Shown here in pieces: positions 1,472 through 27,744 of a stretch of 39,034 bases of DNA. How positions within the stretch are numbered: the first letter of the stretch is position 1; every line of letters begins with the position of its first letter. The notes below the pieces were generated by a model. It was not told where the DNA came from. It worked only from the letters and a program-made list of their open reading frames with translations, and made no database searches. The stretch comes from Shigella phage ESh1, in the sequence record ON528715; one strand, 5' to 3'. The translations under genes were made by a program, and so were the position numbers.

Positions 1472-3346
1472 ATGGCTAACGTAATTAAAACCGTTTTGAC
1501 TTACCAGTTAGATGGCTCCAATCGTGATTTTAATATCCCGTTTGAGTATCTAGCCCGTAAGTTCGTAGTGGTAACTCTTATCGGTGTAGACCGCAAGGTC
1601 CTTACTATTAATACAGACTACCGTTTCGCTACTCGTACTACAATCTCACTGACTAAGGCTTGGGGTCCAGCGGATGGCTACACTACTATCGAGTTACGTC
1701 GAGTAACCTCCACGACCGACCGCTTGGTTGACTTTACGGACGGCTCAATCCTTCGTGCGTATGACCTTAACGTTGCCCAGATTCAAACGATGCACGTAGC
1801 GGAAGAGGCGCGTGGCCTTACTGCCGATACCATCGGTGTCAATAACGATGGTCACTTAGATGCCCGTGGTCGTCGCATTGTGAACCTAGCGAACGCCGTG
1901 GATGACCGTGATGCTGTTCCTTTTGGTCAACTAAAGACCATGAACCAGAACTCATGGCATGCTCGAAATGAGGCCCTACAGTTCCGCAATGAGGCTCAGA
2001 ATTTCCGCAATCAAGCGGAAGGCTTTAAGAACGCGTCAGATACTAACGCTACTAACACAAAGCAGTGGCGAGATGAGGCTGAGGGGTTCCGTAATGAGGC
2101 CGAGCAATTCAAGAATACGGCTGGTCAATATGCCACCTCTGCTGGGAACTCTGCGTCTGCTGCTCATCAATCTGAGGTAAACGCTGGGAACTCAGCTACT
2201 GCCTCCGCAGATTCTGCCGCTTCTTCGAAACAGCAAGCAGACCGAGCGAAGCAGGAGGCAGACAAACTGGGCAACTGGAATGCACTTGCAGGGGCCATTG
2301 AGGGTGTTGATGGTAACGATGTAACGTTTAAAGGCATTATCAAAACACCGTTTAACGTTGTAGGTGGCGGCCTTGTCTCTACTGGTGCTGCAAGCATTGC
2401 AAAGGGTTTGAGTGTTGATGGTGGACTTGTTGTTGGTGAAGATATCGCTGCACATAAGGATGTGTGGGTAGATGGTGTGGTTGTTGCCAATGGTGGTATA
2501 CAGCAACAGTCTGGACCTAATTCCACTAATGATATGTGGCGACTGTTTATTAAAGGGGGACCAATGCATATTGGAAACCGACAAGGCCTTCACCTTGGTT
2601 GGAACGAGAGTGTTGGTACAGGGGCGTCATCCTTTATTACCAACAAAGGCTTAGGTGATGGGGGTTTTATTTTCCGCACGGTAAACTTTGAGAACACTGC
2701 TGAGATTGGTCGCGTTACATTCACTGGTAACGGTGGAGTACGCGCCTTCGATTTACAAGCAGTTAACGGTGCGCGCATTGAGGCTGGAAACAATATAGTA
2801 GGCGCAAGGATTTTCTCAGGAATGGGCAGCTGCCAATTCGATACCGAAGGTAACTTACTGGGAGGACTATGGAACCGCGTTGGTGGTGACCTATACAACT
2901 TCCTGTGGAACAAGGGTCACTTCGCTAAGCCACCTGCTGGAGTCCAGTTGTTTACATCCCGTGGTGGTGACTACCTCGAGGGTCTCGTGGATAACACGGC
3001 TGTAGGGTTCCGCTGGTTTCTGTCAGACAGGAGACTTAAAGAAAACATAAAGGTTGTACGCTCCGCTGAGGATATGCTCAATATTATCCGCTCGTACATC
3101 CCGGTTTCCTATAAGTATAAGGACTCTGAGTATGTTGATAAGCGTGGTAGAACGGTAAGAATTACCGGTAAGAACTCTCGCGCTGGTTTCATTACTCAGG
3201 ATTTGATTAGAATCTGGCCTGAGGCGGTGGACGTGCTGTCCGATGGTATGCAATCACCAGACCCTAACCAAATCATTGGTGGACTAATGCTTCTTGTCAA
3301 GAACCTTGACGAACGTGTACAGGAGTTGGAGAAAAATAACGCTTAA
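1472..3346 (+). CDS. 17: Tail fiber protein (gp17), mosaic: T7-like N-terminal region, divergent central/receptor-binding region, C-terminal chaperone-like module
   Basis: 624-aa ORF with RBS TAAGGAGGT. N-terminus MANVIKTVLTYQLDGSNRDFNIPFEYLARKF matches T7 gp17 to about residue 270, then diverges; C-terminal motif FLSDRRLKENI resembles auto-cleaving intramolecular chaperone domains. Confidence 0.9.
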   Translation: MANVIKTVLTYQLDGSNRDFNIPFEYLARKFVVVTLIGVDRKVLTINTDYRFATRTTISLTKAWGPADGYTTIELRRVTSTTDRLVDFTDGSILRAYDLNVAQIQTMHVAEEARGLTADTIGVNNDGHLDARGRRIVNLANAVDDRDAVPFGQLKTMNQNSWHARNEALQFRNEAQNFRNQAEGFKNASDTNATNTKQWRDEAEGFRNEAEQFKNTAGQYATSAGNSASAAHQSEVNAGNSATASADSAASSKQQADRAKQEADKLGNWNALAGAIEGVDGNDVTFKGIIKTPFNVVGGGLVSTGAASIAKGLSVDGGLVVGEDIAAHKDVWVDGVVVANGGIQQQSGPNSTNDMWRLFIKGGPMHIGNRQGLHLGWNESVGTGASSFITNKGLGDGGFIFRTVNFENTAEIGRVTFTGNGGVRAFDLQAVNGARIEAGNNIVGARIFSGMGSCQFDTEGNLLGGLWNRVGGDLYNFLWNKGHFAKPPAGVQLFTSRGGDYLEGLVDNTAVGFRWFLSDRRLKENIKVVRSAEDMLNIIRSYIPVSYKYKDSEYVDKRGRTVRITGKNSRAGFITQDLIRIWPEAVDVLSDGMQSPDPNQIIGGLMLLVKNLDERVQELEKNNA

Positions 3347-4419: not shown

Positions 4420-6180
4420 GTGTCTACTCAATCCAATCGTAATGCGCTCGTAGTGGCGCAACTGAAAGGAGACTTCGTGGCGTTTCTGTTCGTCTTATGG
4501 AAGGCGTTAAACCTTCCGGTGCCCACTAAGTGTCAGATTGACATGGCTAAGGTGCTGGCGAATGGAGATAACAAGAAGTTCATCTTACAGGCTTTCCGTG
4601 GTATCGGTAAGTCATTCATCACCTGTGCGTTCGTTGTGTGGTCCTTATGGAGAGACCCTCAGTTGAAGATACTTATTGTATCAGCCTCTAAGGAACGTGC
4701 AGACGCTAACTCCATCTTTATTAAGAACATCATTGACCTGCTGCCGTTCCTAGCTGAGTTAAAGCCAAGACCAGGACAGCGTGACTCGGTAATCAGCTTT
4801 GATGTAGGCCCAGCCAATCCTGACCACTCTCCTAGTGTAAAATCAGTAGGTATTACTGGTCAGTTAACAGGTAGCCGTGCTGACATTATTATTGCGGATG
4901 ACGTTGAGATTCCGTCTAACAGTGCAACTATGGGTGCCCGTGAGAAGCTATGGACTCTGGTTCAGGAGTTCGCTGCATTACTTAAGCCACTGCCTTCCTC
5001 CCGCGTTATCTACCTTGGTACACCTCAGACAGAGATGACTCTCTATAAGGAACTTGAGGATAACCGTGGATACACAACCATAATCTGGCCTGCTCTGTAC
5101 CCAAGGACTCGTGAAGAGAACCTCTATTACTCACAGCGTCTTGCTCCTATGCTACGTGCTGAGTACGATGAGAACCCTGAGGCACTCGCTGGGACTCCGA
5201 CAGACCCTGTGCGCTTTGACCGTGATGACCTCCGTGAGCGTGAGTTGGAATACGGCAAGGCTGGCTTCACACTACAGTTCATGCTTAACCCGAACTTGAG
5301 TGATGCCGAGAAGTACCCTCTGAGGCTTCGTGATGCTATCGTAGCGGCCTTAGACTTAGAGAAGGCCCCAATGCATTACCAGTGGCTTCCTAACCGTCAG
5401 AACATCATTGAGGACCTTCCTAACGTTGGCCTTAAAGGTGATGACCTTCATACGTACCATGAGTGCTCTAACAACTCTGGTCAGTATCAACAGAAGATTC
5501 TGGTCATTGACCCGAGTGGTCGCGGTAAGGATGAAACAGGTTACGCTGTGCTGTACACCCTGAACGGTTACATCTACCTAATGGAAGCTGGAGGTTTCCG
5601 TGATGGCTACTCTGATAAGACCCTTGAGTTACTCGCTAAGAAAGCTAAGCAATGGGGAGTCCAGACGGTTGTCTACGAGAGTAACTTCGGTGACGGTATG
5701 TTTGGTAAGGTATTCAGTCCTATACTTCTTAAACACCACAACTGCGCAATGGAAGAGATTCGTGCTCGTGGTATGAAGGAGATGCGTATTTGTGATACCC
5801 TTGAGCCAGTCATGCAGACTCACCGCCTTGTCATTCGTGATGAGGTCATTAGGGCCGACTATCAGTCCGCTCGTGACGTAGACGGTAAGCATGACGTTAA
5901 GTACTCACTGTTCTACCAGATGACCCGTATCACTCGTGAGAAAGGTGCTCTGGCTCATGATGACCGATTGGATGCCCTTGCGTTAGGCATTGAGTATCTC
6001 CGTGAGTCCATGCAGTTGGATTCCGTTAAGGTCGAAGGTGAAGTGCTTGCTGACTTCCTTGAGGAGCACATGATGCGTCCTACAGTGTCTGCTACCCACA
6101 TCATTGAGATGTCTGTAGGAGGAGTTGATGTGTACTCCGAGGACGATGAGGGTTACGGTACGTCTTTCATTGAGTGGTGA
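4420..6180 (+). CDS. 19: Terminase large subunit / DNA maturation protein B (gp19), GTG start
   Basis: 586 aa, [19 protein letters not shown]... essentially T7 gp19; RBS GGAGG 6 nt upstream of GTG. Confidence 0.92.
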
Positions 6181-6284: not shown

Positions 6285-6439
6285 GGAGGGACGAAAGGTT
6301 ACTATATAGATACTGAATGAATACTTATAGAGTGCATAAAGTATGCATATAGTCGTACCTAGAGTGACCTCTAAGAATGGTGATTATATTGTTATTAATA
6401 TCACCTATACTTAAAGACCAACATAAAGGGAGGAGACTC

Positions 6440-6589
6440 ATGTTCCGCTTATTGTTGAACCTACTGCGGCATAGAGTCACCTACCGATTTCTTGTGGTAC
6501 TTTGTGCTGCCCTTGGGTACGCATCTCTTACTGGAGACCTCAGTTCACTGGAGTCTGCCGTTTGCTCTATACTCACTTGTAGCGATTAG
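6440..6589 (+). CDS. 19.5: gp19.5 small membrane-type protein
   Basis: MFRLLLNLLRHRVTYRFLVVLCAALGYASLTGDLSSLES.. matches T7 gp19.5; RBS AAAGGGAGGAG; ORF track extends upstream to 6377 but the RBS supports 6440. Confidence 0.75.
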   Translation: MFRLLLNLLRHRVTYRFLVVLCAALGYASLTGDLSSLESAVCSILTCSD

Positions 6590-13099: not shown

Positions 13100-13357
13100 A
13101 TGGGACGTCTATATAGTGGGAACTTAAATGACTTCAAGGCTGCTTTCAACAGGCTCTACCAGTTGGACCTTGCTGTTATAGCAGTTGAGCAGGAAGGCTC
13201 ACCAAACATAAAGGCAACCATGTACCTTCGGATTGAAGACCGTGCTGGACGCATAATTGCTCAGGAAGAGATTCACCACTGCGACGAAGACGTTCTGTAC
13301 AATATATGCACTGCTTGGCTGAACCGTATGTATGACCAGTTGAAGGACTGGAAGTAA
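13100..13357 (+). CDS. 1.2: gp1.2, inhibitor of host dGTP triphosphohydrolase
   Basis: 85 aa; N- and C-termini (MGRLYSGNL.. and ..MYDQLKDWK) match T7 gp1.2, central region diverged. Confidence 0.8.
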   Translation: MGRLYSGNLNDFKAAFNRLYQLDLAVIAVEQEGSPNIKATMYLRIEDRAGRIIAQEEIHHCDEDVLYNICTAWLNRMYDQLKDWK

Positions 13358-13377
13358 TACGACTCACTAAAGGTAGA
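13355..13377 (+). promoter_or_regulatory. Phage RNAP promoter phi1.3
   Basis: TAATACGACTCACTAAAGGTAGA, overlapping the 1.2 stop. Confidence 0.8.
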
Positions 13378-13382
13378 ACCCA

Positions 13383-13796
13383 ATGAACGACATAAAGCGA
13401 TTCAACGATAAGACCGAACCGTGTGGTGATTGTTTGCGTTGGATTGGTAGCATCCAGCCTAATGGCTACGGACGGTTTCGCCTGCATGGTAAGCCTATGT
13501 ATGCCCATAGGGCTTCGTACATTCTGTTCAACGGTGAGTTGAATAATGGTGATGTAGTCCTACACTCCTGTGACAATAGATGGTGTGTAAATCCGGCACA
13601 CCTAATCAAGGGCACACAGGCAGATAACCTTATAGACATGGCTATCAAAGGCCGTGGCGCTAGAAAGATAACTAATGAGCAGGTCGAGATGATACGTATG
13701 GACCCTCGCTCCGGCAGGGAGCTAGCAAGGGTACTTAATGTAGCTGCTTCGACAATAAGCCACATACGAAACGGTAAACTGAGGAAATATATATGA
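13383..13796 (+). CDS. HNH-family homing endonuclease (free-standing), inserted between phi1.3 and the ligase gene
   Basis: 137 aa with N-terminal CGDCLRW and HNH core GDVVLHSCDNRWCVNPAHLIKGTQADN; stop overlaps ligase start (ATGA). No counterpart at this site in T7. Confidence 0.8.
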   Translation: MNDIKRFNDKTEPCGDCLRWIGSIQPNGYGRFRLHGKPMYAHRASYILFNGELNNGDVVLHSCDNRWCVNPAHLIKGTQADNLIDMAIKGRGARKITNEQVEMIRMDPRSGRELARVLNVAASTISHIRNGKLRKYI

Positions 13797-14875
13797 TTAT
13801 CAACTTTAAGACTTCACCATACAAGGCAGTATCTTTCGTAGAGTCTGCCATCAAGAAAGCTCTGGATAACGCTGGGTATCTTATCGCTGACATTAAGTAC
13901 GATGGTGTCCGTGGTAACATCTGCGTAGACAATACCGCTAACTGCTGCTGGCTCTCTCGTGTATCTAAAACGATTCCGGCACTGGAGCACTTAAACGGAT
14001 TTGATGTTCGCTGGAAGCGTCTGCTGAACGATGACCGTTGCTTCTACAAAGACGGCTTCATGCTTGATGGGGAACTCATGGTCAAAGGCGTAGACTTTAA
14101 CGCAGGGTCCGGCCTACTGCGTACCAAATGGACTGACACCAAGAACCAAGAGTTCCACGAAGAGTTATTCGTTGAACCAATCCGTAAGAAAGATAAGGTT
14201 CCCTTTAAGCTACACACTGGACACCTTCACGTCAAACTGTACGCTATCCTCCCGCTGCACATAGTAGAGTCTGGAGAAGACTGTGACGTTATGACGTTGC
14301 TCATGCAGGAACACGTTAAGAACATGCTGCCTCTGCTACAGGAATACTTCCCTGAAATTGAGTGGCAAGCGGCTGAATCTTACGAAGTATACGACATGAT
14401 TGAACTCCAGCAATTGTACGAGCAGAAGCGAGCAGAAGGCCATGAGGGTCTCATTGTGAAAGACCCGATGTGTATCTATAAGCGCGGTAAGAAGTCAGGC
14501 TGGTGGAAAATGAAACCTGAGAACGAAGCTGACGGTATCATTCAGGGTCTGGTATGGGGTACAAAAGGTCTGGCTAATGAAGGCAAAGTGATTGGTTTTG
14601 AGGTGCTTCTTGAGAGTGGGCGTGTAGTTAACGCCACGAATATCTCTCGCGACTTAATGGATGAGTTCACTGAGACAGTAAAAGAGGCCACCCTAAGTCA
14701 ATGGGGATTCTTTAGCCCATACGGTATTGGAGACAACGATGCCTGTACGATTAACCCTTACGATGGATGGGCGTGTCAAATCAGCTACATGGAGGAAACA
14801 CCTGACGGCTCTCTACGTCACCCATCGTTCGTAATGTTCCGTGGCACAGAGGACAACCCTCAAGAGAAAATGTAA
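13793..14875 (+). CDS. 1.3: ATP-dependent DNA ligase (gp1.3)
   Basis: 360 aa with adenylation motif IADIKYDGVRG; otherwise near-identical to T7 ligase. Confidence 0.95.
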   Translation: MIINFKTSPYKAVSFVESAIKKALDNAGYLIADIKYDGVRGNICVDNTANCCWLSRVSKTIPALEHLNGFDVRWKRLLNDDRCFYKDGFMLDGELMVKGVDFNAGSGLLRTKWTDTKNQEFHEELFVEPIRKKDKVPFKLHTGHLHVKLYAILPLHIVESGEDCDVMTLLMQEHVKNMLPLLQEYFPEIEWQAAESYEVYDMIELQQLYEQKRAEGHEGLIVKDPMCIYKRGKKSGWWKMKPENEADGIIQGLVWGTKGLANEGKVIGFEVLLESGRVVNATNISRDLMDEFTETVKEATLSQWGFFSPYGIGDNDACTINPYDGWACQISYMEETPDGSLRHPSFVMFRGTEDNPQEKM

Positions 14876-14882
14876 TTATACT

Positions 14883-14913
14883 GGCTCACCTTCGGGTGGG
14901 CCTTTCTGCGTTT
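14883..14913 (+). terminator. Early terminator TE (rho-independent)
   Basis: GGCTCACC-TTCG-GGTGGGCC hairpin followed by a T-rich tract, same as T7 TE after gene 1.3. Confidence 0.85.
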
Positions 14914-14927
14914 ATAGGAGGCACTTT

Positions 14928-15083
14928 ATGTTTAAGAAGGTTGGTAAATTCCTTGCAGCTTGGGCAGCTATCCTGACGTTTGCGTATCTTCTTGCGGTAT
15001 ACCCTCAAGTAGCACTCGTAGTAGTTGGCGCTTGCTGCTTAGCGGCAGCGTGTGCTTGCGTATGGTGCTTCGTTAACTGCTAA
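14928..15083 (+). CDS. 1.4: gp1.4 small hydrophobic protein
   Basis: 51 aa MFKKVGKFLAAWAAILTFAYLLAVYPQ...; start chosen by homology and position after TE. Confidence 0.7.
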   Translation: MFKKVGKFLAAWAAILTFAYLLAVYPQVALVVVGACCLAAACACVWCFVNC

Positions 15084-15225: not shown

Positions 15226-15486
15226 ATGTTTCGACTTCATTACAACAAAAGCATTAAGAATTTCACGGTTCGCCGTGCTGACCGTTCAATCGTATGTGCG
15301 AGCGAGCGCCGAGCTAAATTACCTCTTATTGGTAACACAGTTCCTCTGGCACCGAGCGTCCACATCATTATCACCCGTGGTGACTTCGAGAAAGCAGTAG
15401 ACAAGAAACGTCCGGTTCTTAGTGTGGCAGTGACCCGATTCCCGTTCGTCCGTCTGTTACTCAAACGAATCAAGGAGGTGTTCTGA
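15226..15486 (+). CDS. 1.6: gp1.6
   Basis: 86 aa ORF at the T7 1.6 position; [21 protein letters not shown]... Confidence 0.8.
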
Positions 15487-16079
15487 TGGGACTGTTAGAT
15501 GGTTCAGATTGGGAAAAAGAAAACCCACCAGTTCAATCAACTGGGTGTATAGCTTGCTTAGAGAAAGATGACCGTTATCCACACACTTGCAACAAAGGAG
15601 CTAACAATATGACCGAACGTGAACAAGAGATTATCATTAAGTTGATAGATAATAACGAGGGTCGTAGCGGAGACACATCTGGTTGTGGACTGTTCTGCGC
15701 TGGAGTACCTTGCGGCGAGTGTCCTGTGACAAACGATGGGCACATTACTCTAGGTGAAATCCGAGCGATGGACCCGCGTAAACCTCACCTGAATAAACTT
15801 GAGGTAACTCCTACAGATGACCATCCTTCCGCTGAGGCAATCGAAGGTGTCACTAAGCCTTCCCATTACATGCTGTTCGATGACATTGAGGCTATCGAAG
15901 TGATTGCCCGTTCAATGACTCGTGAGCAGTTCAAAGGGTACTGCTTAGGGAACATCCTTAAGTACCGCCTACGTGCTGGTAAGAAGTCAGAACTGGCTTA
16001 CTTAGAGAAAGACATGGCGAAAGCTGGCTTCTATGGTGAACTGTACGAGAAACATAAGGATAAGTGCTATGACGCTTAA
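15486..16079 (+). CDS. 1.7: Nucleotide kinase (gp1.7)
   Basis: 197 aa, Cys-rich N-terminal region, matches T7 gp1.7; start overlaps the 1.6 stop. Confidence 0.85.
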   Translation: MGLLDGSDWEKENPPVQSTGCIACLEKDDRYPHTCNKGANNMTEREQEIIIKLIDNNEGRSGDTSGCGLFCAGVPCGECPVTNDGHITLGEIRAMDPRKPHLNKLEVTPTDDHPSAEAIEGVTKPSHYMLFDDIEAIEVIARSMTREQFKGYCLGNILKYRLRAGKKSELAYLEKDMAKAGFYGELYEKHKDKCYDA

Positions 16080-16549: not shown

Positions 16550-17248
16550 ATGGCTAAGAAGATTTTCACCTCTGCGCTTGGCATCGCTGAACCTTACGCT
16601 TACATCTCTAAGCCGGACTACGGCAACGAAGAGCGTGGCTTTGGGAACCCTCGCGGTGTCTACAAAGTTGACCTGACTATTCCCAACAAAGACCCGCGCT
16701 GCCAGCGTATGGTCGATGAAATCGTGAAGTGCCACGAAGAGGCTTATGCTGCTGCCGTTGAGGAATACGAAGCTAACCCGCCTGCTGTAGCTCGTGGTAA
16801 GAAACCTCTGAAACCGTATGAAGGAGACATGCCGTTCTTCGATAACGGTGACGGCACGACTACCTTTAAGTTCAAATGCTATGCGTCTTTCCAAGACAAG
16901 AAAACCAAAGAGACCAAGCACATCAATCTGGTTGTGGTTGACTCCAAGGGCAAGAAGATTGAAGACGTTCCGATTATCGGTGGCGGCTCTAAGCTGAAAG
17001 TCAAATACTCTCTGGTTCCGTACAAGTGGAACACTGCTGTGGGTGCCAGCGTTAAGCTGCAACTTGAATCCGTGATGCTGGTCGAACTGGCTACCTTTGG
17101 TGGTGGTGAAGACGATTGGGCTGACGAAGTTGAAGAGAACGGCTATGTTGCCTCTGGTTCTGCCAAAGCGAGCAAACCACGCGACGAAGAAAGCTGGGAC
17201 GAAGACGACGAAGGCTCTTACGAAGAAGACTCAGACGGAGACTTCTAA
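16550..17248 (+). CDS. 2.5: Single-stranded DNA-binding protein (gp2.5)
   Basis: 232 aa with acidic C-terminus ...DEDDEGSYEEDSDGDF; matches T7 gp2.5. Confidence 0.95.
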   Translation: MAKKIFTSALGIAEPYAYISKPDYGNEERGFGNPRGVYKVDLTIPNKDPRCQRMVDEIVKCHEEAYAAAVEEYEANPPAVARGKKPLKPYEGDMPFFDNGDGTTTFKFKCYASFQDKKTKETKHINLVVVDSKGKKIEDVPIIGGGSKLKVKYSLVPYKWNTAVGASVKLQLESVMLVELATFGGGEDDWADEVEENGYVASGSAKASKPRDEESWDEDDEGSYEEDSDGDF

Positions 17249-17704
17249 GTGGCTGGCGCATACGCTGCGCGTGGTATCAGAAAGGTCGGGACATTCCGTT
17301 CCGGCCTAGAAGATAAGGTCTCTAAGCAGCTAGAGGGTAAGGGCATTAAGTTCGACTATGAACTGTGGAAAATCCCTTACGTTGTCCCTGCGAGCAACCA
17401 TGTGTATACTCCAGACTTCCTGCTGCCTAACGGAATCTTTATTGAAACCAAAGGTTTATGGGAGAGTGACGACCGAAAGAAACACTTACTGATTCGCGAA
17501 CAGTTTCCCGAACTGGACATCCGTCTGGTGTTCTCAAGCTCACGCACTAAGCTGTATAAAGGGTCTCCTACCAGTTATGGTGAGTGGTGTGAGAAGCACG
17601 GTATTCTGTTTGCTGACAAATTAATTCCTGTAGAATGGCTCAAAGAACCCAAAAAGGAGGTGCCATTTGACAAGCTGAAACAATCGAAGGGAGGAAAGAA
17701 ATAA
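17249..17704 (+). CDS. 3: Endonuclease I, Holliday-junction resolvase (gp3), GTG start
   Basis: 151 aa (M)AGAYAARGIRKVGTFRSGLEDKVSKQLEGKGIKF.. matches T7 endonuclease I; begins directly after the 2.5 stop. Confidence 0.85.
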   Translation: MAGAYAARGIRKVGTFRSGLEDKVSKQLEGKGIKFDYELWKIPYVVPASNHVYTPDFLLPNGIFIETKGLWESDDRKKHLLIREQFPELDIRLVFSSSRTKLYKGSPTSYGEWCEKHGILFADKLIPVEWLKEPKKEVPFDKLKQSKGGKK

Positions 17705-18159
17705 TGGCTCGTGTACAGTTTAAACAACGTGAATCTACTGACGCAATCTTTGTCCACTGCTCGGCTACTAAGCCAAGTCAGAATGTAGGAGTTCGCGAGA
17801 TTCGGCAGTGGCATAAAGAGCAGGGTTGGCTTGATGTAGGGTATCACTTTATCATCAAGAGAGATGGTACTGTGGAGGAAGGCCGAGATGAGATGGCTGT
17901 AGGCTCTCACGTTAAGGGACACAACCACAACTCTATTGGCGTCTGCCTTGTAGGTGGTATCGACGATAAAGGTAAGTTTGACGCTAACTTTACGCCAGCC
18001 CAAATGCAATCCCTTCGCTCACTGCTTGTCACACTGCTGGCTAAGTACGAAGGTGCTGTGCTTCGGGCGCATCATGATGTGGCACCTAAGGCTTGCCCAT
18101 CGTTCGACCTTAAGCGTTGGTGGGAGAAGAACGAACTGGTCACTTCTGACCGTGGATAA
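17704..18159 (+). CDS. 3.5: Lysozyme / N-acetylmuramoyl-L-alanine amidase, RNAP inhibitor (gp3.5)
   Basis: 151 aa MARVQFKQRESTDAIFVHCSATKPSQNVGVREIRQWH.., as T7 lysozyme. Confidence 0.95.
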   Translation: MARVQFKQRESTDAIFVHCSATKPSQNVGVREIRQWHKEQGWLDVGYHFIIKRDGTVEEGRDEMAVGSHVKGHNHNSIGVCLVGGIDDKGKFDANFTPAQMQSLRSLLVTLLAKYEGAVLRAHHDVAPKACPSFDLKRWWEKNELVTSDRG

Positions 18160-18160
18160 T

Positions 18161-18183
18161 TAATTAAACTCACTAAAGGGAGA
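18161..18183 (+). promoter_or_regulatory. Phage RNAP promoter phi3.8-like
   Basis: TAATTAAACTCACTAAAGGGAGA followed by ACCACAACGGTTTCCC; here it directly precedes gene 4. Confidence 0.75.
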
Positions 18184-18215
18184 CCACAACGGTTTCCCTT
18201 TGTTCGCAATGTTGA

Positions 18216-19931
<1,716 letters not shown>

Positions 19932-20980: not shown

Positions 20981-23095
20981 ATGATCGTTTCTGACATCGA
21001 AGCTAACGCCCTCTTAGAGAGCGTCACTAAGTTCCACTGCGGGGTTATCTACGACTACTCCACCGCTGAGTACGTAAGTTACCGCCCGAGTGACTTCGGT
21101 GCGTATCTGGATGCGCTGGAAGCCGAGGTTGCACGAGGCGGTCTTATTGTGTTCCACAACGGTCACAAGTATGACGTTCCTGCATTGACCAAACTGGCAA
21201 AGCTACAATTGAACCGAGAGTTCCATCTTCCTCGTGAGAACTGTATTGACACCCTAGTGCTGTCACGCTTGATTCACTCTAACCTCAAAGACACCGATAT
21301 GGGTCTTCTGCGTTCCGGCAAGTTGCCAGGAAAACGCTTTGGGTCTCACGCTTTGGAGGCGTGGGGTTATCGCTTAGGCGAGATGAAGGGTGAATACAAA
21401 GACGACTTTAAGCGTATGCTTGAAGAGCAGGGTGAAGAATACATCGACGGAATGGAGTGGTGGAACTTCAACGAAGAGATGATGGACTATAACGTTCAGG
21501 ACGTTGTGGTCACTAAAGCTCTCCTTGAGAAGCTACTCTCTGACAAACATTACTTCCCTCCTGAGATTGACTTCACGGACGTAGGATACACTACGTTCTG
21601 GTCAGAATCCCTTGAGGCCGTTGATATTGAACATCGCGCTGCGTGGCTGCTCGCTAAGCAAGAGCGCAATGGGTTCCCGTTTGACACGAAAGCAATCGAA
21701 GAGTTGTACGTAGAGTTAGCTGCCCGTCGCTCTGAGTTGCTCCGTAAATTGACCGAAACGTTCGGCTCATGGTATCAACCGAAAGGTGGCACTGAGATGT
21801 TCTGCCATCCGCGAACAGGTAAGCCGCTACCTAAGTACCCTCGCATTAAGACACCTAAAGTTGGTGGAATCTTTAAGAAGCCTAAGAACAAGGCACAGCG
21901 AGAAGGCCGTGAGCCTTGCGAACTGGATACCCGCGAGTACGTTGCTGGTGCTCCTTATACTCCAGTGGAGCACGTAGTGTTTAACCCTTCGTCTCGTGAC
22001 CACATTCAGAAGAAACTCCAAGAGGCTGGATGGGTCCCGACCAAGTACACCGATAAGGGCGCTCCTGTGGTGGACGATGAGGTACTCGAAGGTGTTCGTG
22101 TAGATGACCCTGAGAAGCAAGCTGCTATCGACCTCATTAAAGAGTATCTAATGATTCAGAAGCGAATCGGACAGTCTGCTGAGGGAGACAAGGCATGGCT
22201 TCGTTACGTTGCTGAGGACGGTAAGATTCATGGTTCTGTTAACCCCAATGGAGCGGTTACTGGGCGTGCGACCCATGCGTTCCCCAACCTTGCACAAATT
22301 CCTGGTGTACGTTCTCCTTATGGAGAGCAGTGTCGCGCTGCTTTTGGCGCTGAGCACCATTTGGATGGGATAACTGGTAAGCCTTGGGTGCAGGCAGGTA
22401 TCGACGCATCCGGTCTGGAGTTACGCTGCTTGGCCCACTTTATGGCTCGCTTTGATAACGGAGAGTATGCTCACGAGATTCTTAATGGCGACATCCACAC
22501 TAAGAACCAGATGGCTGCCGAATTGCCTACCCGTGATAACGCCAAGACGTTCATCTATGGGTTCCTCTATGGTGCTGGTGACGAGAAGATTGGACAGATT
22601 GTTGGTGCTGGTAAAGAGCGCGGTAAGGAACTAAAGAAGAAATTCCTTGAGAACACCCCAGCTATCGCAGCACTCCGTGAGTCTATCCAACAGGCACTTG
22701 TCGAGTCCTCTCAGTGGGTTGCTGGTGAACAGCGAGTCAAGTGGAAACGCCGCTGGATTAAAGGTCTGGATGGTCGTAAGGTACACGTTCGTAGTCCTCA
22801 CGCTGCCTTGAATACCCTACTGCAATCTGCTGGTGCTCTTATCTGCAAACTGTGGATTATCAAGACCGAAGAGATGCTCGTAGAGAAAGGCTTGAAGCAT
22901 GGCTGGGATGGGGACTTTGCGTACATGGCATGGGTACATGATGAAATTCAAGTAGGTTGCCGTACCGAAGAGATTGCTCAGGTGGTCATCGAGACCGCAC
23001 AAGAGGCGATGCGCTGGGTGGGAGACCACTGGAACTTCCGGTGTCTTCTGGATACCGAAGGTAAGATGGGTCCTAATTGGGCCGTATGTCACTAA
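20981..23095 (+). CDS. 5: DNA polymerase (gp5), family A with 3'-5' exonuclease
   Basis: 704 aa [36 protein letters not shown]...; same length and sequence as T7 gp5 as recalled. Confidence 0.97.
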
Positions 23096-23114
23096 TTCTA
23101 TAGGAGAAATTATT

Positions 23115-23411
23115 ATGGCTATCACTAAGAAATTTAAAGTGTCATTTGACGTTACCCTTAAGCTGGACAGCGAGACAGAAGAATTGATGCGAGAAAAGAT
23201 TCTGGACCTAGCCCATCGTGCTGGTGCTGGTGAGGAAATTGCTCCTATGGACCGAGAGTTGCTAGTTCAGGCCCTGACACGTGGTCCAGACGGTGCCGCT
23301 GCATTTGCTGTTCGCCAAGGTATCCGTAACGCTGTAAAGGAGATGTTCGAAGAGACTAGTGATAAATCACTGTTCAAACAATCCCCTGCAACTGTACGGG
23401 AGGTGTTCTGA
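23115..23411 (+). CDS. 5.5: gp5.5 (H-NS-binding protein homolog)
   Basis: 98 aa MAITKKFKVSFDVTLKLDSETEELMREKILDLAHRAG..; assigned as 5.5 by length and position immediately before 5.7. Confidence 0.7.
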   Translation: MAITKKFKVSFDVTLKLDSETEELMREKILDLAHRAGAGEEIAPMDRELLVQALTRGPDGAAAFAVRQGIRNAVKEMFEETSDKSLFKQSPATVREVF

Positions 23412-25798: not shown

Positions 25799-26119
25799 AT
25801 GGGTAAGAAAATTAAGAAGGCCGTGAAGAAAGTCACCAAGCCAATTACGAAAGCCGTGAAGAAAGTTACCAAGGAAGTGGCTCGTCCTGTTAAACAGGTT
25901 GCTGGTGCGCTGGCAGGTGGTGCTGGTGAAGCACAGGTAGTGGAAGTACCACAACCAACGGCTGCTGCAACTCCTGCTGCACAGATTGTTGACGTACCTG
26001 AGAAAGAGGTTTCCACTGAGGACGAAGCACAGACCGAAAGCGGACGTAAGAAAGCCCGTGCTGGCGGTAAGAAGTCCTTAAGCGTAGCCCGTAGCTCAGG
26101 TGGCGGCATCAACATTTAA
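25799..26119 (+). CDS. 7.3: gp7.3 tail/adsorption-associated protein
   Basis: 106 aa lysine-rich MGKKIKKAVKKVTKPITKAVKKVTKEV.., about 7 aa longer than T7 gp7.3. Confidence 0.85.
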   Translation: MGKKIKKAVKKVTKPITKAVKKVTKEVARPVKQVAGALAGGAGEAQVVEVPQPTAAATPAAQIVDVPEKEVSTEDEAQTESGRKKARAGGKKSLSVARSSGGGINI

Positions 26120-26133
26120 ACAGGAGGTGACAC

Positions 26134-27744
26134 ATGGCTGAGAAGCGTACAGGTCTAGCCGAGGAAGGCGCAAAGTCCGTTTATGACAGATTGAAGAACG
26201 ACCGCGCTCCTTATGAGACTCGTGCTCAAAACTGCGCTCAGTACACCATTCCGTCCCTCTTCCCTAAGGACTCCGATAACTCATCCACAGACTACACAAC
26301 TCCGTGGCAAGCCGTGGGTGCTCGTGGTCTCAATAACTTAGCCTCTAAGCTCATGTTGGCACTCTTCCCTATGCAAACGTGGATGAAGCTGACTATCTCT
26401 GAGTATGAGGCGAAACAGTTACTGAATGACCCAGATGGACTCGCCAAGGTCGATGAGGGTCTCTCAATGGTAGAGCGTATCATCATGAACTACATTGAGT
26501 CGAACAGCTACCGAGTGACTCTCTTTGAGGCTCTCAAGCAGTTAGTAGTAGCGGGTAACGTCCTGCTGTACCTACCGGAACCAGAAGGGTCAAACTATAA
26601 TCCCATGAAGCTGTACCGATTGTCTTCTTATGTGGTCCAACGAGACGCATTCGGCAACGTTCTGCAAATGGTGACTCGTGACCAGATAGCTTTTGGTGCT
26701 CTCCCTGAGGACATCCGTAAGGCTGTAGAAGGTCAAGGCGGTGAGAAGAAAGCTGATGAGACCGTCGATGTGTACACTCACATCTATCTGGATGAGGACT
26801 CAGGTGAATACAAACGATACGAAGAGGTCGAGGGTATGGAAGTACAAGGCTCCGATGGGTCTTACCCTAAAGAGGCTTGCCCATACATCCCGATTCGAAT
26901 GGTTCGGCTCGACGGTGAATCCTACGGTCGTTCGTACATTGAGGAATACTTAGGCGACTTACGGTCCCTTGAGAATCTCCAAGAGGCCATCGTTAAGATG
27001 TCAATGATTAGCTCTAAGGTTATCGGCTTAGTGAATCCTGCTGGTATCACCCAGCCACGCCGACTGACCAAAGCTCAGACTGGCGACTTCGTTACTGGTC
27101 GTCCAGAGGACATCTCGTTCCTCCAATTGGAGAAGCAAGCAGACTTTACTGTAGCCAAGGCTGTCAGTGATGCTATTGAGGCTCGCCTTTCGTTTGCCTT
27201 TATGTTGAACTCTGCGGTTCAGCGCACAGGTGAACGTGTGACCGCCGAAGAGATTCGGTATGTCGCTTCTGAACTTGAAGATACTTTAGGTGGTGTCTAC
27301 TCTATCCTTTCTCAAGAATTACAATTGCCTCTGGTACGAGTGCTCTTGAAGCAACTACAAGCCACGCAACAGATTCCTGAGTTACCTAAGGAAGCCGTAG
27401 AGCCAACCATTAGTACAGGTCTGGAAGCAATTGGTCGAGGCCAAGACCTTGATAAGCTGGAACGCTGTGTCACTGCGTGGGCTGCTCTAGCTCCTATGCG
27501 TGATGACCCTGACATCAACCTTGCGATGATTAAGTTGCGCATTGCGAACGCTATTGGTATTGACACTTCTGGTATTCTACTCACCGAAGAACAGAAGCAA
27601 CAGAAGATGGCCCAACAGTCTATGCAAATGGGTATGGATAATGGTGCTGCTGCACTGGCCCAAGGTATGGCTGCACAAGCTACAGCTTCACCTGAAGCTA
27701 TGGCTGCTGCCGCTGATTCCGTAGGTTTACAGCCGGGCATTTAA
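26134..27744 (+). CDS. 8: Head-tail connector / portal protein (gp8)
   Basis: 536 aa MAEKRTGLAEEGAKSVYDRLKNDRAPYETRAQNCAQY.., as T7 gp8. Confidence 0.95.
   Translation: MAEKRTGLAEEGAKSVYDRLKNDRAPYETRAQNCAQYTIPSLFPKDSDNSSTDYTTPWQAVGARGLNNLASKLMLALFPMQTWMKLTISEYEAKQLLNDPDGLAKVDEGLSMVERIIMNYIESNSYRVTLFEALKQLVVAGNVLLYLPEPEGSNYNPMKLYRLSSYVVQRDAFGNVLQMVTRDQIAFGALPEDIRKAVEGQGGEKKADETVDVYTHIYLDEDSGEYKRYEEVEGMEVQGSDGSYPKEACPYIPIRMVRLDGESYGRSYIEEYLGDLRSLENLQEAIVKMSMISSKVIGLVNPAGITQPRRLTKAQTGDFVTGRPEDISFLQLEKQADFTVAKAVSDAIEARLSFAFMLNSAVQRTGERVTAEEIRYVASELEDTLGGVYSILSQELQLPLVRVLLKQLQATQQIPELPKEAVEPTISTGLEAIGRGQDLDKLERCVTAWAALAPMRDDPDINLAMIKLRIANAIGIDTSGILLTEEQKQQKMAQQSMQMGMDNGAAALAQGMAAQATASPEAMAAAADSVGLQPGI

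Follow-up and report, generated by a model that had tools for sequence, protein, structure and literature searches.

A probable homing endonuclease gene in place of the ligase leader hairpin in the T7-like Shigella phage ESh1

The 39,034-nucleotide sequence of Shigella phage ESh1 (ON528715), hereafter called the window, carries a 137-amino-acid (aa) open reading frame (ORF) between its phi1.3-type promoter and gene 1.3, the gene for DNA ligase. We consider this ORF to be probably a free-standing HNH homing endonuclease gene of the HNH_3/T7 gp2.8-gp7.7 family, whose product joins a His-Me finger nuclease domain to a helix-turn-helix domain. Support for a homing gene comes from the site-specific presence and absence of the ORF among related phages, the differing alleles that flank it, its intact catalytic motif, the purifying selection acting on it and the existence of a decayed copy. 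A preliminary description of this locus had proposed a selfish homing endonuclease insertion. The homing proposal gains support from the data presented below, whereas a pure insertion does not describe the locus, because the element replaces approximately 59 nucleotides (nt) and is accompanied by a recoded ligase start. Cleavage, its target site and homing itself are activities that we infer for the protein.

The HNH gene and its neighbors

The window is the circularly permuted genome of a T7-like phage (Teseptimavirus) with approximately 91% identity to its nearest GenBank relatives. The HNH ORF stands alone between genes 1.2 and 1.3, has its own start codon and lies outside any intron or intein. 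The features of the locus are as follows.

13355-13377, plus strand: phi1.3-type T7 RNA polymerase class II promoter TAATACGACTCACTAAAGGTAGA, from -17 to +6 with +1 at G13372 (pattern scan)
13370-13373, plus strand: weak putative Shine-Dalgarno sequence AAGG for the HNH gene, at promoter positions -2 to +2 and 9 nt 5′ of the ATG (read from the sequence)
13383-13796, plus strand: probable free-standing HNH (His-Me finger) endonuclease gene, 137 aa, ATG start, paralogue of T7 genes 7.7 and 2.8
13383-13652, plus strand: N-terminal nuclease domain of the HNH protein, aa 1-90
13653-13793, plus strand: C-terminal, fast-diverging three-helix helix-turn-helix DNA-binding domain, aa 91-137
13781-13785, plus strand: ligase Shine-Dalgarno sequence GAGGA inside the final HNH codons, 7 nt 5′ of the ligase ATG (read from the sequence)
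13781-13831, plus strand: recoded patch comprising the ligase Shine-Dalgarno sequence, the start codon and codons 1-13, MIINFKTSPYKAV as compared to MMNIKTNPFKAV in empty alleles (fixed-column comparison)
13793-14875, plus strand: gene 1.3, ATP-dependent DNA ligase, 360 aa, 96% identical to T7 gp1.3, directly downstream of the HNH gene

The promoter aligns with the annotated phi1.3 promoter of T7. It overlaps the end of gene 1.2, whose TAA stop codon (13355-13357) supplies its first three bases. The preliminary description had located the ORF correctly between phi1.3 and gene 1.3. However, of the span that it gave (13355-13796) only the end is that of the ORF, as 13355 is the first base of the promoter. 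It was also right that AAGG is found close to the promoter and that the TGA stop codon of the HNH gene (13794-13796) overlaps the ligase ATG (13793-13795) in the sequence ATGA (13793-13796). In other clades, AGGAG is embedded in the 3′ end of the HNH gene as the equivalent of GAGGA, the good ligase Shine-Dalgarno sequence of the window.

A Shine-Dalgarno sequence embedded in the promoter is the usual layout for T7 class II promoters, and the phi1.5 (15081) and phi1.6 (15198) promoters of the window are arranged alike with the stronger sequences GGAGG or GGAGA. An mRNA that starts at phi1.3 has a leader of just 11 nt before the HNH ATG, and read-through transcripts from upstream would carry the complete AAGG. 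We infer from the sequence that AAGG serves as the ribosome-binding signal of the HNH gene.

The gene is located in the early/middle block of replication genes. A terminase-associated HNH protein resembling gp74 of HK97 was considered and is ruled out by position, since the gene 19 homologue (large terminase) is found at 4420-6177, approximately 7 kb away. Two ORFs on the minus strand overlap the locus (13176-13508, 110 aa; 13466-13765, 99 aa). As all T7 gene homologues detected in the window are on the plus strand, these two ORFs are probably spurious.

A His-Me finger nuclease with a helix-turn-helix tail

Both sequence motifs quoted in the preliminary description, CGDCLRW (residues 14-20) and LHSCDNRWCVNPAHL (residues 60-74), are present in the ORF, and profile searches bear out the HNH assignment. 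Specifically, residues 40-82 match Pfam HNH_3 (PF13392) with E=1.5e-8 and 34.6 bits, where the gathering cutoff is 24.8 bits, and the protein matches PHROG 59 ‘HNH endonuclease’ with E=1e-30. The score for the I-PpoI-type zinc-loop family falls slightly under its threshold, and weak matches to helix-turn-helix profiles are found at residues 104-135.

An alignment of 51 homologues taken from a search of 5.8 billion proteins reveals nine invariant residues (C17, Y29, G30, H42, H61, C63, C68, P71 and H73). Residues D64, N65, N70 and N82 are kept in at least 90% of the homologues, and D85 is also near-invariant. Every one of these invariant and near-invariant residues is retained in the window protein. 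The start codon and the N-terminus (M-x-D/N-I-x-R-F) are likewise conserved among homologues. A sequence search of the PDB with the protein gives no match at E≤1. An AF2 model (pLDDT 89.9) has the beta-beta-alpha-metal fold of a complete His-Me finger followed by a helix-turn-helix tail, and its best matches in a fold search are the homing endonucleases I-HmuI and I-PpoI.

The two domains have diverged at different rates. When the window type is compared to the types found at loci L006 and L021, identity is 73-79% in the nuclease domain but no more than 38-40% in the helix-turn-helix domain, and DNA similarity ends at nt 269. Such slow divergence of the nuclease and fast divergence of the helix-turn-helix would be anticipated if changes in DNA specificity outpace changes in catalysis.

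Occupied and empty sites among related phages

The HNH gene is absent from T7 (phi1.3 +1 at 6409, gene 1.3 start at 6475) and from most related loci. The site is also empty in Escherichia phage 04922B, whose genome as a whole is the closest match to the window. Thus, the gene is not shared by all close relatives, which is the distribution that the preliminary description had anticipated, and occupied genomes form a small and scattered minority.

A homologue recognizable at the DNA level (at least 60% aa identity) is held by 22 of 50,697 GenBank phage records. Nineteen of these homologues have 60-65% aa identity to the window protein, and the remaining three are of the window type: those of Shigella phage ESh3 (ON528717; 100% aa identity), Yersinia phage vB_YenP_WW2 (OP161219; 94%) and Escherichia phage Bas104 (PQ850595; 89%). 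These three share the site, the junctions and the recoded ligase start with the window on backbones that differ from its own, and in two of the three records the gene is already annotated as ‘HNH endonuclease’ or ‘endonuclease’. In most of the annotated records among the GenBank homologues, the 3′ end of the match overlaps an annotated ligase gene.

A second survey used 50 IMG/VR loci gathered by ligase search and then examined by local tblastn with the HNH protein. Seven of the 50 carry a homologue (41-64% aa identity) directly upstream of the ligase gene. A more distant clade (41-43% identity) also sits immediately 5′ of ligase, as confirmed in IMG/VR loci L037, L040 and L054, and the many 41-43% matches in Klebsiella phage records probably belong to this same ligase-upstream clade. 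Related HNH genes are found immediately 5′ of ligase in three lineages, which have T7-, T3- and K11-type promoters. Wherever a homologue of gene 1.2 was identified, the distance from it to ligase is bimodal, with either 61-132 nt (empty) or 434-439 nt (occupied). The exception is L007 (IMGVR_UViG_2974612054, ~2139-2501), where a 361-nt gap holds a second, tandem copy of gene 1.2 that starts MGRLYSGNL, and not an HNH gene.

A tblastn search of the window for paralogues of the HNH gene found none. T7 genes 2.8, 3.8, 5.3 and 7.7 are absent at their T7 positions, where the flanking genes of the window abut:

Window 17245-17255, 18156-18216, 23092-23115 and ~26100-26134: abutting flanks at the positions of the missing T7 genes 2.8, 3.8, 5.3 and 7.7

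With neither 2.8 nor 7.7 at its T7 position, the gene at 13383 is therefore the sole member of its family detected in the window. Furthermore, the window lacks four small genes of T7 and T7 lacks this one, and the two phages therefore carry complementary sets. Gene 5.3 of T7 is presumably HNH-like. Gene 3.8 is described as an HNH homing endonuclease in a 2025 preprint (10.1101/2025.09.07.674715).

Discrete junctions and the loss of a leader hairpin

Alignment of occupied and empty loci yields discrete junctions. On the left, the T7-type and T3-type promoter groups both switch at promoter positions +3 to +8, and on the right the boundary is the ligase start. For T7-type promoters, the empty sequence GGGACAA|TGCTTAAGG corresponds to the occupied sequence GGGATAA|CCCAATG. 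For T3-type promoters, the empty sequence GGAGAA|TCCTTAAGG (L035) corresponds to the occupied sequence GGAGAA|ACGAAATG (L021). Linkage of the promoter variant CACTAAAGG to the element was considered and rejected, since the empty-site loci L008, L010, L011 and L016 have the same -2A variant, and so the phi1.3-type promoter is part of the host backbone rather than of the element.

In the preliminary description, T7 has no HNH gene at this locus, which is true, and ligase follows the promoter directly, which is not. A 65-nt leader separates phi1.3 from ligase in T7, and this leader holds a strong hairpin (-23 kcal/mol, z=-3.5), the R1.3 RNase III site described by Dunn and Studier (1983). The empty site of L035 folds with the same z-score of -3.5. 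When both ends of the HNH gene in the window were folded, no RNase III-like hairpin was found at either (z=+0.46 and +0.87). Similarly, the hairpin core AAGGTC...GGCCTT occurs four times in T7 (1441, 5861, 6421 and 13867) and three times in the window (8414, 12825 and 20495), and the copy that is missing from the window is the one at R1.3. As a consequence, mRNA spanning genes 1.1, 1.2, HNH and ligase is probably left unprocessed at this point.

Because the hairpin is absent at the occupied site, the element must replace approximately 59 nt, consisting of the R1.3 hairpin and the native ligase Shine-Dalgarno sequence, instead of simply inserting. In exchange, approximately 420 nt are gained. 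Occupied alleles of both the T7 type and the T3 type lack the hairpin that all of their empty siblings conserve. Przondovirus-type loci are arranged differently, in that the hairpin is kept and the HNH gene comes just after it.

A recoded ligase start

To find positions that distinguish carriers from non-carriers, five window-type occupied alleles and 15 empty T7-group alleles were scanned for fixed differences over an interval that extends 1400 nt to the 5′ side and 1150 nt to the 3′ side of the ligase ATG. The sole columns that separate the two sets are at 13781-13831. Additional separating columns at 13465-13673 were discarded as alignment artefacts, in which pieces of the empty-site hairpin are forced into the interior of the HNH gene. 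Nucleotides 1-42 of the ligase gene are 60-71% identical to the empty alleles, whereas nt 43-342 are 84-95% identical.

Przondovirus-type occupied alleles have an analogous patch, with MNIQTKPYK in place of MMNIKTNPFK, and the T3-type occupied locus L021 encodes MNIFKTAPYK as compared to MNIFKTNPFK. The T3-type occupied loci L026 and L027 keep MNIFKTNPFK and differ further downstream (AVAF versus AVSF). In all window-type carriers, the hairpin and leader are replaced and positions 13781-13831 are recoded. The patch is either donor sequence that moves with the gene or a change that protects carriers, which would make it a candidate immunity or target-site region. Taken together, the junctions and the recoded patch define a mobile unit of ~455 bp, roughly from 13375 to 13831.

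Probable movement relative to flanking genes

The HNH gene is found beside two alleles of gene 1.2 that have 33-40% aa identity, and each of these alleles is also found next to empty sites. For example, the gene 1.2 allele of Bas104 is just 33% identical to that of the window, and comparison of the two phages gives 88-96% identity across the HNH gene and 38-58% in gene 1.2. The window and ESh3 are 99.5% identical in DNA across the HNH gene and 90-94% identical in the adjacent gene 1.2 region, and this excess over the flank is consistent with recent spread. Identities of the HNH and ligase genes are also incongruent, at 62% and 89% between the window and L006, and at 64% and 69% between the window and L021. 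This evidence that the gene moves independently of its flanks is circumstantial, and general mosaic recombination could contribute to the same patterns.

These comparisons also bear on a different history, in which the ancestor of all Studiervirinae already had the gene 5′ of ligase and it was lost from T7 and most relatives, such that the empty sites are deletions. The occurrence of related HNH genes directly 5′ of ligase in three promoter lineages would be explained in this way, and the hairpin upstream of the HNH gene in Przondovirus-type loci means that a clean deletion there could in principle yield the empty layout. For T7- and T3-type phages, however, removal of the HNH gene could not regenerate the hairpin that occupied alleles lack and all empty siblings conserve. 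Moreover, the divergence of the HNH genes is out of step with that of ligase, near-identical HNH copies lie beside the two dissimilar gene 1.2 alleles, and the occupied genomes are few and scattered. We therefore judge ancestral presence followed by loss to be very unlikely, and favor gain of a homing endonuclease gene.

Gene 1.2 (dGTPase inhibitor, window 13100-13357) displays a mosaic pattern of its own. Its two alleles, with 33-40% aa identity, reside in backbones that are otherwise ~90% identical, and the switch points at the conserved phi1.1B and phi1.3 promoters suggest promoter-mediated module exchange.

Selection and decay

Within the window clade, the HNH gene has a dN/dS of 0.15-0.28, indicating purifying selection. 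Other copies appear to be deteriorating. The Przondovirus-type HNH gene of L040 (2076-2483) has a premature stop after codon 43 and is a decaying copy. A window-type copy in L055 (3001-3414, protein P0002) has the changes D64A and D81G at conserved positions and may be inactivated. Its dN/dS relative to Bas104 is 0.68, a value that rests on very few differences. The occurrence of gain, constraint and decay side by side would fit the life cycle of a homing endonuclease gene.

Could the window copy itself be an inactive relic, or a helix-turn-helix regulator that does not cleave DNA? Its weak Shine-Dalgarno sequence and the 11-nt leader of phi1.3 transcripts are compatible with this idea, as are the disabling changes in relatives (the stop codon of L040 and D64A/D81G of L055). 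However, all residues that are invariant or nearly so in the family are intact in the window copy, its dN/dS is well under 1, and the protein is modeled with confidence as a complete His-Me finger. We give this possibility almost no credence.

The constraint on the protein can also be viewed as a sign that the gene is a domesticated or otherwise beneficial accessory of the phage. For example, the protein might bind DNA to blunt a host defense that is triggered by breaks, or might degrade competitor or host DNA. A 2025 preprint reports that ectopic, catalytically inactive T7 gp3.8 strongly weakens GAPS4 defense, and that, in the presence of GAPS4, wild-type T7 outcompetes a T7 derivative without genes 2.8, 3.8 and 7.7 (10.1101/2025.09.07.674715). 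These results favor an accessory role, given that genes 2.8 and 7.7 are paralogous to the window ORF. Against it, few close relatives have the gene, the nearest genome lacks it and the L040 copy is decaying, which speaks against a general requirement. Also, the catalytic motif is strictly conserved, which would be needless for a protein that acts by DNA binding only. As an explanation for the gene, an accessory role seems unlikely to us, but it is compatible with homing and both could be true.

A proposed homing mechanism and candidate target

We propose that the HNH gene would be transcribed together with the class I and class II replication genes, both by read-through from upstream and from phi1.3, and that its translation from a poor Shine-Dalgarno sequence would be weak, yielding low levels of enzyme. 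During co-infection, a monomeric enzyme would bind an extended, asymmetric site in a T7-like genome whose site is empty (phi1.3, R1.3 hairpin, ligase), and would nick or cut at or near the junction of the R1.3 hairpin and the ligase start. Nicking seems likely by analogy, as enzymes of the I-HmuI type are nickases (PMC3428280). Phage recombination and repair would then use the HNH-bearing genome as the template, such that the ~455-bp cassette (about 13375-13831) is copied to the recipient.

In this proposal, the carrier genome would escape its own enzyme, since its hairpin and leader have given way to the cassette, which also recodes the ligase start. The cost to the phage should be low because a new ligase Shine-Dalgarno sequence is provided within the 3′ end of the HNH gene, and because the stop and start codons overlap as ATGA. 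The preliminary description had predicted that the target is the ligase-region allele of phages that lack the insert. This prediction is plausible, and can now be stated more narrowly.

Several considerations weigh against a homing endonuclease that acts at this junction. Searches found no measured activity, cleavage site or biased inheritance for the HNH protein or its close homologues. The metal and zinc ligands and the roles of individual residues are deduced from conservation and fold. Presence and absence alone cannot distinguish repeated gain from repeated loss, and purifying selection fits a function that benefits the phage equally well as it fits homing. The recoded patch could be mere donor sequence carried along with the cassette. 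Finally, for the free-standing endonucleases of T4 the cut is often hundreds to thousands of bp away from the endonuclease gene (PMC2988022), and the target could therefore lie further off than the junction proposed here. Counter to a distant target, there is no other fixed difference within ~1.2 kb of the ligase start.

A broader proposal can be offered only tentatively. One HNH lineage may have repeatedly invaded the start site for ligase translation, in three or more lineages of the Studiervirinae (T7-, T3- and K11-type promoters), by targeting the conserved DNA of the R1.3 hairpin and ligase start. Loss of R1.3 in T7- and T3-type carriers could then alter the processing or expression of ligase mRNA, and the protein may in addition protect its carrier against break-sensing defenses, like its T7 paralogues.

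Comparison to known homing endonucleases

Among the closest known counterparts are two putative HNH homing endonucleases of T7. The window protein is homologous over its full length to gp7.7 (39% identity, BLASTP E=1e-26, residues 16-137 aligned with gp7.7 residues 3-130) and to gp2.8 (39% identity, BLASTP E=5e-23). These proteins share the same two-domain layout, including the C-terminal helix-turn-helix, and the same kind of host. Their genes are likewise free-standing between conserved genes on the coding strand, and all are dispensable and sporadic. The sites differ, in that the T7 genes lie between 7.3 and 8 and between 2.5 and 3, whereas the window gene is flanked by 1.2 and 1.3. Identity of the helix-turn-helix domain to those of gp7.7 and gp2.8 is only ~36%, and so the target of the window protein is probably different. 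Among the reports we found, none maps a cleavage site for the window HNH protein, gp7.7 or gp2.8. The preprint on GAPS4 treats genes 2.8, 3.8 and 7.7 as the homing endonucleases of T7 and deletes all three (10.1101/2025.09.07.674715).

The gene for I-HmuI of phage SPO1 (PDB 1U3E) resides in a group I intron of a DNA polymerase gene, and the enzyme nicks alleles with and without the intron alike (PMC3428280). The window gene differs in having no intron, and sequence identity between the proteins is 18-23%. Moreover, the Cys/His cluster of the window protein resembles the zinc sites of I-PpoI-type enzymes.

The MobA-E proteins of T4 combine an HNH nuclease with a distinct C-terminal DNA-binding region, and their genes are intergenic, sporadic and spread by repair with co-conversion of flanks (PMC2988022). 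The window element resembles them in its HNH and C-terminal DNA-binding regions, its position between conserved genes and its sporadic distribution, but belongs to another HNH subfamily and another phage family. In addition, whereas T4 enzymes often cut far from their genes, the fixed differences of the window element are all within ~50 bp of the gene.

In T7-like phages, free-standing HNH homing endonuclease genes are known to be both common and sporadic (PMC4925675, PMC8861465, PMC12295037). Our literature searches yielded general reports of this kind and no paper on this particular gene or site. The gene is thus an uncharacterized member of a well-known kind rather than a new kind of system, and an identical protein from ESh3 is already in GenBank. 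What is added here are the precise boundaries of the element, the loss of R1.3 and a narrow candidate target.

Implications for T7-like phages

Occupied and empty alleles of this locus form a clean, naturally occurring pair in a phage system that is understood better than any other. The narrow candidate target, comprising ~50 bp at the ligase start and the R1.3 hairpin, eases homing, marker-exclusion or cleavage experiments with T7. For annotators, the interval between genes 1.2 and 1.3 of T7-like genomes is an expected site of mosaicism driven by homing endonucleases, and T7- and T3-type genomes that bear the HNH gene are also expected to be without the R1.3 processing site. For phylogeny or for work on synthetic T7-like phages, this segment should be regarded as one that moves independently of the backbone.

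Other variable regions of the window

Short indel or replacement blocks at window positions 14650-14750, 14900-15050 and 15450-15500, at the 3′ end of the ligase gene and in the gene 1.4-1.7 region, vary among close relatives. The window and T7 have segments in common that are absent from L009, L011, L016 and L047.

Two further genes depart from T7. Gene 5.5 (window 23115-23408) has just 51% identity to its T7 counterpart, whereas its neighbors have 98-99%. In the tail fiber protein gp17 (window 1472-2341), the resemblance to T7 is confined to the N-terminal 290 aa, and the receptor-binding part is therefore different.

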